From: Octopus vulgaris | Taxonomy: Eukaryota | Reading direction: 5' to 3' | DNA length: 64,000 nucleotides | NCBI GenBank assembly: GCA_951406725.2 | Contig: OX597828.1 | Location: 16,306,001-16,370,000 of the forward strand | Shown here: positions 2,386-45,175 of the stretch, piece after piece | Numbering within the stretch: position 1 is the first letter of the stretch | How the letters are laid out: the number at the start of each line of letters is the position of its first letter | Translations under genes and position numbers: made by a program | The notes under the pieces: model-generated | The model's input: the letters and a program-made list of their open reading frames with translations, nothing else | What the model was told of the DNA's origin: nothing | The model's database searches: none

Positions 2386-2880
2386 TTATTTCTTTCTTAC
2401 TTAATTTTGAAAGAGGGTTCACCCGAGACGTTAGTCTACTTCTCCTTTTCTTTTTTTCCTGTCTGTCGGCGCACTTTTGAATACTGACAACATTTTATAT
2501 TTGTATTCTTGCATTTAAAAAAATATTTGTCTACCCGTTCTAAACTCGAACGTTGTCCAACAGTGTATCTCTTATTCCGCCCGGTCCAGTTTGGGCTAGT
2601 TAACTTATACATACAGCGGTGGTGCCCCAGCATGGCCGCGGCCTTCGGGCTAAAACATTTTAAGGATTTTAAGGATTTATACATACATACATACATACAT
2701 ATATATATATATGTATACATATATATATATGTACATACATATATGTACATATATATATACATATATATGTCTATATATATATATATATTTATAATAGGAT
2801 TAGCTCGTATACGAGTAGGTATATATTTGTAAAAAATGAAGTTCGAAAATGCTGCTGTATTATACAATTTTTAATTTTTA

Positions 2881-2930
2881 TATATACATTATAACATGTT
2901 TCAGTTCCTGAAATGAACCTTATCAAAAAA
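2881..2930 (-). ncRNA. Candidate U3-A8 variant hammerhead ribozyme in the PLE pLTR
   Basis: Minus strand: TTGATAA GGTTC atttcag GAACT GAA ACAT gttata ATGT A; stems II and III well formed, stem I poor. Confidence 0.5.
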
Positions 2931-3222
2931 AGTTATATATAAAAAGAGACAGCTCATGCCGTCAAACACAAGAAATTCATTTATAATACACAACGGAGTC
3001 AGACATCTTAGAGTTCATGTATAGTTGATATATAGTTTGAAGTATATGTTCAAAGTGTTCGATGCAGTGGCCCACGGTGGCGATACGTATTCAATACAAA
3101 AAACAGATCAAAGTGGTGGAAAGCGGTCAATACAGAAGATTGATGTTTCCGAAAGAGCGAGGAATTCATTTTTACCTTAAGCAATTGTGATGACCCATGG
3201 TGGAAGTTCGCTGGGTGGTTCT

Positions 3223-3617
3223 AGTGATTTTTTGTGAAATGCTCGGTTTTATAATGCCTGTTAGGTGGTCAATCTAGCGTAGCGTGACGTCATCAATGTT
3301 TTGACCAATCGTTTCGTTAGGTGGCTTTAATCAAGTGGAACGGGACGTCATCATTATTTTGACCAATCGCTGCATTATAACTCCCTCTTGTTTGTTTCCT
3401 GTCTTGACCAGTCGCTTCGTTAGTCAAGTATAGCGGGACGTCATTTAGATTCTGCCCAATCACGACTTATAGCTACATTAGATCTGCCCCCTGTCTGTAC
3501 TTGTTAGGTGACTATTCAAGCAGAAAAGGACGTCATCAATATTCTGACTAATGACTGTCCCCTGTTTGTATCCTGTCCATTCTAGCAGAGCTAGACGTCA
3601 TCAACTTGTTGACCAAT
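3223..3617 (-). promoter_or_regulatory. Putative pLTR Pol II promoter: five CRE-like/CCAAT modules, TATA, Inr
   Basis: GACGTCA-N12-C(C/T)AAT (+ strand) at 3286, 3344, 3437, 3529, 3594; TATAAAA on minus at 3253-3247; TCACT at 3227-3223. Confidence 0.6.
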
Positions 3618-3786
3618 CAGAATCGGGTCTGACCCTTAGCTGTATCGTATGTATCAGGGTCAGATTTGCACGAAAGAATTTTTTTCCTTTTTTTACTAAG
3701 GCATATTTCCGTCAGAGTGAGTGTCTGTTTGAAGTAGCGGCCGTGGTGAAATTTGGTTCTCCTTTTCGGAGGACTTATCTTTTGTT

Positions 3787-5313
3787 TTAGTATTCCTGGC
3801 CCAGGGTGTTTAAACTTGGTCTAAATTTTTTTATGAAATATAGTTCTTTATTTTGGCGTTGTGTGAAGGTTGCGTTGTCACTGAATTTATAGAGCGGGTT
3901 AGTTGTAAATTTCGGATTTACATTTCCAGTACATCTATCTATGTGTCCGCTGACCGGTATTTTGCGGTAATCAGGGTTTCTAATTTGTGATTTATGCACC
4001 GCCATCCTGTTACGTAAGCTATTTTTTGTATGGCCTATATACTGCCTATTGCAGCCTGTGCATGTTATGACGTAAATTAAGTTTTCTGATGCGCAGCTGA
4101 AGTTTGTTCTAATGGTGAACTGGTGGCCTTGTTCCAGTATAAATTCTGATCCTTCTTTCAAGATGACACAGATTCCGCAGTTGGGCCTTCCACATTTTCT
4201 AACTGCTGGTTTTGTGGTTGATGTTGAGTGCAGTGTAGCTTGGGTTAAAATCCTTTTCAAGGATTTTGGTTGCCGTTTACTTTTAATGATGGTGTGTGTT
4301 TCGAGGATCCGGTTCATCTTTGGGTCTCCCTTTAGTAGGGCTGTGCTTTGTAGTATGGTGTTGAAGGCCTCATTGTTGAGTGGGTTGTGTGTAGAGATGT
4401 AGGGAAGGGTTTTTAATTGTTCTTTCTTTTTTGGTTTTGTTTGTCTCAGGTCTTCTATACTTAATTTAAGTACCCGTTGGATTGCACTGTCTATTAGGGG
4501 CTGTGGATAGTTTCTATTTGTGAGTGTGGTTCTAAGTTCCTGGAGACGTGTGTGTCGGGTGTTTGTGTTTGATATTATGGTGCAAATCCTTCTAGCTAAA
4601 CAAAAAGGGACATTCATTCTAGTGTGTCGTGGGTGGCATGAATCAAAGGGTAGGTACTGTTTAGAGTCTGTCGGTTTATAGTAGATATCTGTCTCTATTT
4701 TGTTGCCGGTTATCTTAATGAGGATGTCTAAAAATGGTAATTCTATTTCGTTGTGGTCCATCGTGAATTGTATATTGTCATTTATTCCATTTAATAGAAT
4801 TTTAAATTCCTCAAGTTTCTCTATGCCTTTGTCCCAGATGATGAAACAGTCATCGAGGTATCTTTTCCAGTTGTTATGGATATAGGTGGCGAAGGTGTTT
4901 CCATATTTCTCGAGTGTCATCCGGTATAGTATTTTCTCGAGGTATCCCATCACTAGGTTGGCAAAAGATGGTGCAGTACGCGTGCCCATCGCTGTTCCCG
5001 ATCTTTGCCTGTAGAAATCATTGTCAAAAATAAAATAATTGTTCTCTAAAATGAATCTAAGTCCTTCTATTATAAGGTCTTTGTTTATGCGAGTTGGTAG
5101 TTCAAAGGGGTAGTTATTCAGCCAGAAGGTGATTGCTTCTATTCCTAGGTTGTGAGGGATGTTAGAATAAAGATTAACTACGTCGAATGATACTAGAAGG
5201 GTTTTCTCATTGACTGTTTTAGGGAGGTGGTTGAGCATATCTATATCGTCTCTTACGTAGCTTTTGATGTGTTTTAGGAAAGGTTTAAGAAGTGTGTCTA
5301 AGAACTGAAACAT
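3787..5313 (-). CDS. PLE reverse transcriptase + Cys-rich linker + GIY-YIG endonuclease (N-terminally truncated; start codon supplied by the inverted repeat)
   Basis: RT motifs [40 protein letters not shown]; linker CGRPNCGIC; endonuclease [19 protein letters not shown]...RNRMAVH...ELYFI...PSLN; 508 codons without a stop. Confidence 0.95.
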
Positions 5314-5378
5314 GTTATAATGTATATATAAAAATTAAAAATTGTATAATACAGCAGCATTTTCGAACTTCATTTTTT

Positions 5379-5427
<49 letters not shown>

Positions 5428-5474
5428 CACATATATATATATATGTACATACATATATATACATATATATCTAC

Positions 5475-5579
<105 letters not shown>

Positions 5580-5661
5580 GGTCCCGGGTTGAGTCGGGGT
5601 TAACCACAGTAAATAAGGTACTCAATACATAGCAGAGTAAATTAATTTATTTTATAGAAGG

Positions 5662-5712
5662 AGCTTCTATAAGACTAGAACTGTTTCATTCAAATGAAAT
5701 CATCAGGAAGCT
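5662..5712 (-). ncRNA. Type I hammerhead ribozyme, degenerate copy (stem III mutated)
   Basis: Reverse complement of the 7720-7770 motif with CTGT changed to TTAT in stem III. Confidence 0.6.
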
Positions 5713-6087
5713 TGCTGTCAAAATAAGTTCTGGCATTTATACATTTAGGCAGATTTAATGGGGTGGGGGACATTTTTTAGGTAAGCAGGGCACAAACTGT
5801 CTTTCTTAGGGGAGTGGTCAAAAGAATCAGTGATAAAGTAAATAAATGAATAAATAGAATAATTGAATAGAGTTTTAGGTAAATTAAAAGACTATCGCTT
5901 TTAGTCAGTTTGTCGTTGTTGTTATTAAGTGGAGGGAAGAAGTAGATAAGTATACATAAAAGAACATATAAAATAAATATACATACAAACCCACATACAT
6001 ACACATACGAATATCCATACACATACATATACATATGCCCATGTATATACATACAGACACACACATACATTCATATAAATACACTAG

Positions 6088-7139: not shown

Positions 7140-7719
7140 CACATACATATACACACACAAGTACACATATGCATACAAACATAAATGTACCCGCTTTCAC
7201 ATAAACGTATACATAACTATGTACACACAAACACACATATATAAACGTACTTCAGTACACATAAACACACATAAATATCTGCGCGCATATATAAACGCAT
7301 AAGCTCATATAAAAAGATATGTGCATATAAACATACATACGCATATATACGCATCCATACGCTTATAAATACATATATGCACACATGCATGCATACATGT
7401 GTACATAAATGCATACATGCATATACATTCCTACACACATATATACATACATGCACATCCATACACATACGTACACGTACATACATATACATATCTACAC
7501 ATATACAGATATACACATACAAAAATCTACAAGTCCATATATATATATGTATATATATACACATACATATACGTATATACCTACATATACATACATATAT
7601 ATACTTACACCCATACACCAATATACATATACATATCTACATACACATACATATACATATATATACCACCCCATTAAATCTGCCTAAATGTATAAATGCC
7701 AGAACTTATTTTGACAGCA

Positions 7720-7770
7720 AGCTTCCTGATGATTTCATTTGAATGAAACAGTTCTAGTCCTGTAGAAGCT
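7720..7770 (+). ncRNA. Type I hammerhead ribozyme with intact core
   Basis: AGCTTC CTGATGA tTTC attt GAAt GAA ACAG ttctagtc CTGT A GAAGCT: stem I AGCTTC/GAAGCT, stem III ACAG/CTGT, GUA cleavage triplet ending at 7764. Confidence 0.75.
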
Positions 7771-7824
7771 CATCCTATAAAATAAATAAATATATATATA
7801 TATATATATATACATATATATATG

Positions 7825-40457: not shown

Positions 40458-41749
40458 CGAGGGGAGTTCAATAAGTAATGCCCCTGACCCACTTCCCATA
40501 GCAGTAGAGCAACGAAACTTGGCACAGTTATTAGTCTCTTTCTACATAGGAACCACCCAGAGTTACGCATTTCTCCCATCGTTTGATGCAGCTCTGAAGA
40601 CCGTTTTTGTAGAAGACCCCAGCTTGGTCCTCCAACCACGACGTGACTTCAGAAATCAAGGCTGCATCATCTGGGAAACGCTTTCCTTTCAAAAACAAAT
40701 TCATGGCTGGGAAGAGGTGAAAATCAGAGGGTGCAAGGTCAGGAGAGTAGGGGGGATGGGGGATGAGTTCATAGCCGCACGCCTGTGCTTCTGATCTGGC
40801 GACACGCGAATTGTGAACCGGAGCGTTGTCCTGCAGGAGGAGGATGCCTTTGCTGATCTTGCCCCGCCTCTTGATTTTGATAGCTTCTCTTAATTTCCTC
40901 AAAAGTGAAGCATAATAGGCTCCTGTAATTGTGGTACCCTTTGCCAGGAAATCTGTCATCAGTACTCCGTCCTGGTCCCAGAAGACTGTAAGCATGACCT
41001 TGCCAGCAGAGGGCTGCACCGTTGCCTTCTTTGGAGGAGGTGAGTCACGTTGTGTCCACTGCATTGACTGGGCTTTGATCTCTGGATCATAGTGATGGAC
41101 CCAGGTTTCATCCTGTGTAATCAGTCTTTTGAAAAATTTTGACTCATCTTCTTGGCACATCTCCAAATTCATCCTCGAGCAATCGACACGTTCTTGCTTC
41201 TGGAAAGATGTGAGCAACCTGGGAATCCATCTGGCAGACACCTTTTGTATATGCAAATGGTCATGAATGATAGTTTCCACAGACCCGGTACTAATCTTGA
41301 TCTCATGGGCTATTTGGCGAATAGTTATGCGTCGATCTTCCAAAATGGCAGCCTCAACATGACGGACAGATGCCTCATCAATGGCAGAAGGGGGCGACCA
41401 GAACTGGGAGCTGTTTCCACAGAGTTCCGACCATGTTTGAATTCACGATGCCAGCGTTTTACAAGGTCATATGATGGGACATCATCACCATAAGTTACTT
41501 TCATTTTATCAAAAGTCTCCCGTGGTGTGCGTTCTTTCAAATACAAAAACCGGATCACTGCTCGACACTCAACAGGCTCCATTTCACACTTGACTCAGTT
41601 CAAACACCTGTAAATCAGAAACCACAATTAGTTCAGAGCTGTAATTAGCCACTTAATTTATAAAGATATAAATAATTGTACATGCAAAATTTCAGCTAGA
41701 TCAAATAAATGCAAGTGGGTCAGGAGCATTACTTATTGAACGCCCCTCG
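40458..41749 (-). mobile_element. Full-length mariner DNA transposon (1292 bp)
   Basis: TIRs cgaggggagttcaataagtaatgcccctgacccactt / aagtgggtcaggagcattacttattgaacgcccctcg; TA on both sides. Confidence 0.96.
40531..41582 (-). pseudogene. DD34D mariner transposase with one frameshift near 41390
   Basis: N-terminal HTH in ORF 41325-41582 (…SGRP), continuing in 40531-41343: WIPRLL, TQDETW, QDNAPVH, YSPDLAPSDFHLF. Confidence 0.93.
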
Positions 41750-43461: not shown

Positions 43462-45175
43462 TAGTTTTATTTTTTATAGCGTGCTTTCACTTCACTACCG
43501 AGCGCAGCTCTGTGTGCCTTAGGTATGTGCTGTGATTTGTTGTGATGCTCTGATGGTTATTGTATGGAAAGTGTTCTGCGTAGGATGTGTGCAGTGCCTA
43601 GTAGTGCAATTTTCTGTATGTTATATGTGTTTGTATCCTGGTGTTTTTGTTATGTATTTGTCTGAATATTTTTTTATCATGCCTAATGCACCTACTATGA
43701 TAGGAATTGTTTCTGTTTTTAGAATCCACATTCTGGTTACCTCTATTTCCAGGTCTTTGTATTTTGAAAGTTTCTCCATTTCTTTTAGAGACACGTTGTC
43801 ATCTGCCGGTATTGATACATCAATTAGAAAGCATTTTTTTTCTTCATGATCTCTGACAACTATATCTGGTCTGTTGGCCTTAATTTCTCTATCTGTGTGT
43901 ATCGGCATATCCCAGAGTATGGTTGCTTTCTCTTTTTCTGTGACCTTTTCTGGTGTGTGCCTATACCATCTTTTTTCTGTTGTTATTCCATAATGTTGGC
44001 ATAGCTTCCAGTGTATGTAGGTTCCAACTTTATCATGACTGTGAATATATTCCTTCTTAGCCAGAACTGGGCAGCCAGAGATAATATGATTTATTGTTTC
44101 TTATCCATCTCCACATTCTCTGCAGTTACTTGTTATATTTCTTTTGATTACATGTTTTTGGTAATTTCTGGTGGGGAGGCTTTGGTCTTGTGCTGCAATT
44201 AAAAATCCTTCTGTCTCTGCTTTGAGTCCTGAGCTTCTCAACCATTGTTGGAATTTTTCTTTGTCTATTTCTTTTGCATTTAGTTTAGTCCAGTATTTAC
44301 CATGAAGGGGCTTTTCTTGCCATCGTTTTATCATGGTTCGTTGCTGTTCTATTTTTAATTTGGATTTCATTTGTTTTATAGCTTTTGTTGTTGTTTCTTC
44401 TTCTTCTTCTTCTTCTTCTTCTTCTTCTTCTTCTTCTTCTTCTTCTTCTTCTTCTTCTTCTTCTTCTTCTTCTTCTTCTTCTTCTTCTTCTTCTTCTTCT
44501 TCTTCTTCTTCCTCTTCATATTTGTTAGGTGGTATGATTTCTTGTTTGTATTTGTCAGCTTCCTTAAATACTGAGAACAGTTTTTTGTTTTGCTCGTGTT
44601 TTGCCGCTATTTGTATCAGTTTTCCTTCCTTCTGAAGTAGATATTTTTGCAGTCCTATGGTGGTTATTTTATAGTAGTTTTCCAGCTGTGTAAGGCCTCT
44701 ACCACCTTCTATACGTTGTATATATAGTCTTTCTATGTCAGATTTTGGGTGATGCATCCTAGATCCTGTCATTATTTTTCTTGTTTTCCTATCTATTTTG
44801 GTCAGTTCATTTAGTTTATAATTGGTGTTGTTGTTTCGTCTATTTTGATTTTTGGGAGGTATAGTCGGTGGTCCATTTTCAGCTCTGTGGTTTTCAGTTC
44901 TTTGATTATTTTACTCATAATCATTAGGTTCCCCTTCGTTGTTTCCAGGTTTTAGATTTGTGTCGCTTTCTTTCTTATTTATATGTTTGTTTGTCGTGTT
45001 TTGGCTTGCTGTTTGTCGTGTATTATTATGCATCCTTACGGTCTGGGTTTGTTGTTTTTTGTTTACATCGTGTTTGTTGGGAATGTTACGTTTGTCTTCG
45101 TGTTTTACTGTTTCAGTGTTTATATTATTGGGCATTGTTGTGTGGCCTCTATCTACATTTTCTTATCTACAAGTC
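43459..45175 (-). mobile_element. R4/Dong-clade non-LTR retrotransposon, internally deleted, 3' end at (TAA)n
   Basis: HPKSDIERLY..GGRGL thumb, AETEGFLIAAQDQ, CREC/H/C zinc knuckle, ILWDMPIHTD, RPDIVV, IDVSIP, KLSKYKDL REL motifs; abuts (TAA)n at 43368-43458. Confidence 0.9.

Follow-up and report, generated by a model that had tools for sequence, protein, structure and literature searches.

What is a closely packed series of promoter, start-codon, splice-donor and ribozyme motifs doing inside a retroelement fragment of the Octopus vulgaris genome? The series lies at 2789..3260 and reads on the minus strand of a 64,000-nt stretch of contig OX597828.1, hereafter the window. A first-pass annotation saw in it a portable first exon, which in a tandem master copy would be spliced onto the reverse transcriptase (RT) ORF and in this solitary copy could drive chimeric host transcripts. 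From the sequence we favor, with moderate confidence, a reading in which this is a Neptune-type 3′ pLTR whose motifs supply the element itself with a promoter, a first exon and a 5′ intron.

A truncated Neptune-type element and its ends

The motif region is the 3′ pLTR of a 5′-truncated Neptune-type Penelope-like element (PLE). An uninterrupted minus-strand ORF (3787..5304) aligns with residues 258–752 of a relative 753 aa long (60%), its start corresponding to residue 258. It carries RT and then a GIY-YIG endonuclease (EN) in a single frame, as EN+ PLEs do; the GIY-YIG domain scores above its Pfam cut-off, and RVT_1, on the truncated RT domain, falls just under (E 5.9e-6). For this RT-EN ORF, 559 relatives were found, and the window holds a single RT copy, with no second one detected. 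The linker reads CX4CXXC, and residues C624, C629, C632, C657, C668/C671 and H690 are invariant in our alignment of relatives (A1). A CX2-5CXXC linker with CCHH residues is given for Neptune, Nematis and Naiad by Craig 2021 (PMC8557442), and the C-terminal EN and long linker-to-EN spacing resemble, by eye, the Neptune rows of Fig. S2 in that paper. The assignment to Neptune is a probable one, resting on this motif spacing and on a resemblance in RT3-4 judged by eye, our own tree having been built without named references.

Behind position 5304, an exact inverted copy of 88 nt of the pLTR end (2907–2820) lies on the plus strand at 5302..5389, joined to the ORF via 3 nt of microhomology; in contigs of three sequencing runs (X1, X2 and X11) the ORF continues differently from this point. 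That the inverted piece starts at 2907, beside a CAG that could serve as a splice acceptor, was not counted, as the coincidence lies within the 3-nt microhomology. At the 3′ end only, there is a PLE ‘tail’ of ∼30 nt (2790..2819, minus strand). Within it, at 2801–2815 (minus strand), is a 12-nt palindrome, CTCGTATACGAG, a possible hairpin at the start of second reverse transcription. An X1 contig passes at 2820 directly into (AT)n, without the tail. None of the X1, X2 and X11 contigs reaches the tail, and contig ends at 2820, 2841 and 2858 account in full for the first-bin depths.

Both ends of the element lie in (TA)n, the target described for Neptune: a (TA)n-rich microsatellite occupies 2690..2789, and a second one, ∼5390–5577, follows the inverted piece; the X1 contig likewise ends in such sequence. 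The inverted piece and the ∼30-nt tail fit a pLTR in tandem or inverted arrangement with an optional tail of 30–40 nt; no tandem copy was seen. Inverted pLTRs, optional tails and microsatellite targets are all known PLE traits (PMC8557442, PMC11167929, PMC3846280). Among viral contigs, the element had neither a relative nor an exact match.

Elsewhere in the window, a minus-strand frame of 303 aa (40531–41442) encodes a transposase of mariner type (Pfam Transposase_1). Two further minus-strand frames (43621–44910), which have no Pfam match and are broken by an expanded (GAA)n tract that translates as poly-Glu, are presumably the 3′ part of a non-LTR retrotransposon.

Promoter and ribozyme motifs of the pLTR

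On the minus strand, a TATA box, TATAAAA (3247..3253), is followed by an initiator-like TCACT (3223..3227), the A of which lies 28 nt past the TATA start and gives a predicted transcription start at 3225. An ATG at 3198 in Kozak context, CCACCATGG, opens a micro-ORF of eight codons (3172..3198). This frame encodes MGHHNCL and then meets AG/GTAAAA, with the GT at 3175; unspliced, it adds one Arg before a TAA at 3174–3172, so that donor and stop overlap. The candidate donor, AAG/GTAAAA (3170..3178, phase 2), lies 50 nt after the predicted start and is without the +5 G of the usual splice-donor consensus. TATA, initiator, Kozak ATG, heptapeptide, donor and overlapping stop are thus all found on the minus strand where the first-pass annotation had placed them.

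Upstream, at 3287..3618, is an array of inverted-CCAAT and CRE-like motifs, predicted promoter elements arranged as four ATTGG...TGACGT units with a constant offset of 18 nt (3618/3600, 3461/3443, 3368/3350 and 3310/3292). CRE-like motifs also stand ahead of the hammerhead in eight of nine related loci, with at least four motifs in each of the eight, which suggests that such clusters are a clade-wide promoter type.

To assess chance, we made dinucleotide shuffles (n = 2000) of the 998-nt pLTR and asked for the chain of TATA box, initiator, Kozak ATG and donor. TATA alone was present in 975 shuffles, TATA with an initiator in 152, these with a Kozak ATG in 16, and the full chain in none. On both strands of the window, the full chain occurs once, at 3253–3175. 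A chance origin of the chain is unlikely, and the shuffle result overstates its significance because the pattern was defined after the sequence had been seen.

We compared four runs, all as contigs, over 2782–5312. The longest contigs of X1 (2820–3367), X2 (2841–3274) and X11 (2858–3327), in which the stretch from TATA to hammerhead is included, show 0, 1 and 1 substitutions, respectively. Given this near-identity, the TATA-to-hammerhead motifs represent the family's main form. No variant fell in the TATA box, ATG, donor or ribozyme core among the 40 variants listed of 133. All three longest contigs have a 22-nt segment after 3011 that is absent from the window copy. One X11 contig is unlike 3173–3244, or without it, and matches on both sides (depth 28.7, versus 80.4 for the main form); in this variant the entire first exon is therefore either different or missing. 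Among 83 related loci, 13 of which were placed in our tree, none belongs to the window's subclade, and none has pLTR DNA in common with the window past short AT-rich or hammerhead-sized matches.

Farther along the minus strand is a type I hammerhead-like motif (2875..2945), with a palindromic stem III, a long interrupted stem I and a predicted cut after 2893. Its core (2926–2893) comprises UUGAUAA (2926–2920), a 5-bp stem II (2919–2903), GAA (2902–2900), the palindrome ACAUGU (2899–2894) and U (2893), and thus has the U3-A8 pair, GAAA, GUU triplet, 5-bp stem II and palindromic stem III of a type I core. Proximal stem I has two U-U mismatches. The descriptor was matched in 3 of 5000 shuffles, and a covariance model built from 10 relatives alone found 2934–2881 with moderate significance (E 0.069), as the third match in the window. 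Among these relatives the structure covaries (35 cells with two-sided change, versus 0 of 500 shuffles, a figure subject to the caveat that the sequences are related). Rfam gave no hammerhead match in the window, for any hammerhead family, at either the gathering score or E ≤ 10; the free fold of 2800–2960 is not unusual (z −0.07), and the ribozyme fold, at −7.7 kcal/mol versus −11.9 for the minimum-energy fold, is not the minimum.

In nine of the 11 related loci scanned, a hammerhead with a C3-G8 core, its stem III a 6-nt palindrome, lies 72–415 nt past the RT stop; these loci thereby share the position and palindromic stem III seen here, and one (L006) has the identical ACATGT palindrome. 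A U3-A8 double change has been reported for hammerheads of the Schistosoma mansoni PLE Cercyon (Cervera and de la Pena 2014, PMC4209133). We take the motif to be a real family feature and a putative ribozyme, in line with the hammerhead-like motif that had been proposed for this pLTR. A possible poly(A) signal, ATTAAA, lies at 2870..2875 (minus strand). Ends of X2 and X11 contigs 29 and 12 nt past it were discounted as a hint of polyadenylation, as the ends differ and X1 continues.

The window also contains a second repeat with two canonical C3-G8 hammerheads with real stem III, at 5656–5714 (minus strand) and 7718–7776 (plus strand), both of which Rfam missed. The two copies are 95% alike over 129 nt. 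The 7718–7776 repeat ends in (TA)n at 7794 and the 5656–5714 repeat has ∼60 more bases, to 5576, making another with-tail/without-tail pair; the latter hammerhead shares its microsatellite with the Neptune-type element.

Possible splicing and the role of the start codon

The predicted intron body (2920..3175, minus strand) is U-rich and AG-poor in the window copy, which is without the 22-nt segment. The 255 nt past the donor contain 2 AG dinucleotides versus 10.1 expected (P 0.00035), the first 167 nt contain none, and the other strand is not depleted (CT, 22 versus 19.8 expected). In relatives, the sequence from RT stop to hammerhead is mostly AG-poor as well (n = 7: L001, 0 versus 5.6; five with P 0.03–0.09; one not), so that the depletion is not specific to the predicted intron and lends it weaker support. 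Two candidate acceptors, AAG ending at 2919 and TTTCAG ending at 2908, would lie inside the hammerhead (2908..2920), after TAAC and seven U.

Under the reading we favor, Pol II would start near 3225 under the control of the CCAAT/CRE array and TATA box, and the donor at 3175 would open an intron that most likely ends at 2919 or 2908 within the hammerhead, or just past the tail. In a tandem array, this promoter and first exon would serve the next copy. Unspliced RNA, keeping intron and ribozyme, would be the inserted template; this proposal would explain why the DNA copy has both. The RT-EN protein would likely start at its own ATG farther downstream, the ATG at 3198 being most likely that of a short upstream ORF, or else the point where an upstream ORF begins, rather than the N-terminus of RT. 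The evidence for this reading consists of the motif chain, PLE anatomy, the layout of Penelope, Chlamys-3 and Pen2a, the AG depletion, the conserved main form, the shared position and covarying structure of the hammerhead, and the Met starts of the RT subclade described below. To this extent the first-pass annotation, which saw promoter motifs, a first-exon donor and a hammerhead-like motif in a PLE pLTR, is upheld by the motifs, the PLE anatomy, a Penelope-like donor spacing (50 versus 46 nt) and the AG depletion of the presumed intron. Against the favored reading stand the lack of splice joints, the AG-poor relatives, the X11 first-exon variant, the related loci without the cassette, the automatic origin of the Met calls and the donor without a +5 G.

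Contigs of X1, X2 and X11 cross the candidate donor unbroken, these runs not being on record as RNA. No joint skipping 3175–2919 or 3175–2908 was found in the contigs of the four runs, none of which is on record as RNA, and no loose end at 3176/3175 was seen among the 24 listed of 263 in these runs. Unbroken contigs count against splicing only if X2 or X11 is RNA, which is a guess.

The same missing joints, along with the existence of the exon-1-divergent X11 variant, would be expected if promoter and ribozyme were real but the ATG and donor incidental, with no intron at all. Related loci have their promoter motifs directly before the hammerhead, and a Kozak ATG with donor occurs between RT stop and hammerhead in 0 of 9 of them, none of the nine being from the window's subclade. 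We nevertheless consider this explanation unlikely: adding the donor took the Kozak ATG chain from 16 to 0 of 2000 shuffles, 167 AG-free nt follow the donor, and the geometry is as in Penelope.

Other possibilities give the micro-exon a coding role, and bear on how related proteins begin. Our tree (76 sequences) places the window with six proteins (support 0.998), all of which begin with a called Met, 8–10 residues before a conserved N-terminal motif in five cases and 24 in one. These starts are automatic gene calls and may be GTG or TTG; in the sister group, a eukaryotic gene model from NCBI (P0139) has its start at the same place. A different arrangement is seen among 10 more distant loci, picked from the 83 for identity and 5′ coverage. 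In eight of these, a Met-less RT frame opens, in −1 register, at a TTTTTT(A/G) heptamer that ends an upstream ORF1 (overlap sites L001:1330, L002:549, L003:1747, L004:586, L008:3263, L010:2127, L014:331 and L082:1202). Where intact, ORF1 is 393, 397 or 474 aa long; its family corresponds to no Pfam family and has 939 representatives at E ≤ 0.001. EN+ PLEs have been described as single-ORF elements, and the Fig. 1 legend of Craig 2021 (PMC8557442) mentions an ORF1 with frameshift in some PLE types and conserved introns drawn for some; conserved introns and ORF1 plus frameshift may thus already be on record for Neptune. Eight animal-type Neptune elements are filed in bacterial assemblies or MAGs (loci L081, L082 and L083, and proteins P0019, P0028, P0060, P0062 and P0065), most likely as host contamination.

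ORF1 of these relatives starts ∼140–170 nt past the hammerhead core, about where the window copy ends. This placement is what one might expect if the donor were joined to the AAG ending at 2919, so that the ATG reads through stem II, stem III and tail into ORF1 or an N-terminal extension; splicing would then leave the mRNA without the ribozyme's 5′ half. Of the seven AGs past the donor, the one at 2919 has the most U-rich tract and the longest frame: after a 3175-to-2919 splice the ATG frame is open for 50 codons, to the end of the element, closing only at the (TA)n junction, and 2.3% of shuffles keep one given frame open as long. With the acceptor at 2908, the frame would stop after nine codons. 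AAG splice acceptors are uncommon, and the acceptor type counts against the 2919 join, as does the post hoc choice of acceptor and frame. No junction was seen in contigs of the four runs, and the frame resembles neither ORF1 nor RT N-termini. An MGHHNCL-like start was found in 0 of 317 proteins compared, no ORF1 member compared starts like the micro-exon, and the window has no ORF1 profile match. Open frames from hammerhead to ORF1 ATG in L001, L002 and L009 were treated as chance, since L010, the locus nearest to L001, does not retain them. We judge the 2919 join unlikely as an explanation, and its frame is the most interesting lead among the splice outcomes.

The lead can be put in more general terms: elements of one Neptune lineage would carry the start codon on a coding exon of its own, 23 nt long, with an acceptor inside the hammerhead core and splicing as a ribozyme switch. 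We regard this as distinctly doubtful. If true, one sequence would be both polypyrimidine tract and ribozyme, which would account for the U3-A8 core and for the richness of stem I in U; splicing would turn a ribozyme-bearing transposition template into ribozyme-free mRNA; and each 3′ pLTR scattered in the genome would be a ready coding first exon.

The first-pass annotation had the micro-exon spliced in frame directly onto the RT-EN ORF, a long intron with ribozyme and tail being skipped. The donor is in phase 2, and the RT frame opens at TTTTTTAG, a would-be phase-2 acceptor, in five of the eight frameshift-type relatives. Under this scenario, moreover, splicing would never act on a 3′ pLTR copy, consistent with the unbroken contigs. 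As an acceptor for a micro-exon of the MGHHNCL type, TTTTTTAG was dropped in favor of a −1 slippery site, the better reading of TTTTTT(A/G), since three of the eight sites lack AG. The closest relatives have their called Met shortly before the conserved motif, in agreement with P0139, and no junction was found in the contigs. An X2 contig (contig 24) extends upstream from 5304 for 1152 nt, without a listed joint to the pLTR; the Met position of the relatives is reached after 771 nt, so that at least 381 nt of sequence other than pLTR come before the RT start in the element's family. Longer fused proteins gave seven matches, none of them close, which is weak evidence. Neither the own-Met nor the ORF1-frameshift arrangement needs a micro-exon spliced onto RT. 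From these sequences a direct MGHHNCL–RT join looks unlikely, because the subclade has its own Met, the distant loci have ORF1 with a slippery site, and at least 381 nt precede the RT start; as an account of the cassette, we rate it very improbable.

The promoter does point outward, as had been claimed, the donor likewise (a matter of geometry only), and the copy has the motifs in the family's main form, yet it is hardly credible that the window copy acts as a portable first exon for a host gene toward position 1: the outward 2.8 kb are repeats and microsatellites with seven AATAAA and no strong acceptor by pattern, the local acceptors, ATTAAA and ribozyme all lie within 400 nt, and there are no supporting reads. 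The suggested chimeric host transcripts find no backing, with no 3176/3175 junction in the contigs of the four runs and no host exon identified in the 2.8-kb flank. The outward-promoter idea is not new, as Schostak 2008 (PMC2377424) states for Penelope, as a general possibility, that a 3′ pLTR is able to drive downstream genes or exons. In the favored reading, the promoter of the window copy, with repeats and microsatellites ahead of it, probably has little output.

Comparison with known systems

The reason for which PLEs retain introns, and the function of their hammerheads, are described as open (PMC8557442, PMC11167929). For Penelope and Chlamys-3, the start site and the 5′ intron have been mapped (PMC2377424, PMC4209133, PMC8557442); we found neither mapped for a Neptune element in the literature searched, and supplements or Repbase entries may describe the family. 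A high-copy family with a TATA promoter, a candidate donor and in-ribozyme acceptor candidates would be an easy test system for splicing that separates mRNA from template RNA.

The closest parallel is Penelope of Drosophila virilis, in which the start site lies in the pLTR with an intron 46 nt downstream (Schostak 2008, PMC2377424), the end of which maps to helix I of the hammerhead (PMC4209133); Chlamys-3 has the same 5′ intron (PMC8557442). Shared with Penelope are a pLTR promoter for the next tandem copy and an intron ∼46–50 nt past the start (both predicted here), a tail, a hammerhead with a small palindromic helix III overlapping the intron at its 3′ end, and the proposal of outward transcription of neighbors. 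Penelope has a TATA-less internal promoter and a 75-nt intron shown by RT-PCR, whereas here a TATA box has a CCAAT/CRE array upstream of it, an ATG precedes the donor, the predicted intron measures at least 257 nt and the RT is of Neptune type.

In Pen2a of Adineta vaga, the pLTR holds the same TATA and TCACT pair, the first codons and a 31-bp tail (Arkhipova 2013, PMC3846280). The likeness extends to a start codon in the pLTR, an optional tail and an inverted 5′ pLTR piece; however, the pLTR ATG of Pen2a, a member of the Penelope/Poseidon clade, opens the main ORF directly, and we found no report of a donor after it. The S. mansoni Cercyon minimal hammerheads have the same U3-A8 covariant pair in another host and family (PMC4209133).

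Neptune PLEs (Craig 2021, PMC8557442; our loci L001–L010 and L081–L083) have in common with the window copy a C-terminal GIY-YIG domain, the CX2-5CXXC linker and (TA)n targets, and, in these loci, a hammerhead with a 6-nt palindrome after CRE-like motifs. These loci differ in having C3-G8 cores, a distance from RT stop to ribozyme of 72–415 nt (860 here) and no ATG-donor cassette, and most have an ORF1 with a −1 slippery site. Taken together, the motifs describe, at the level of sequence, a variant of the known PLE pLTR layout.
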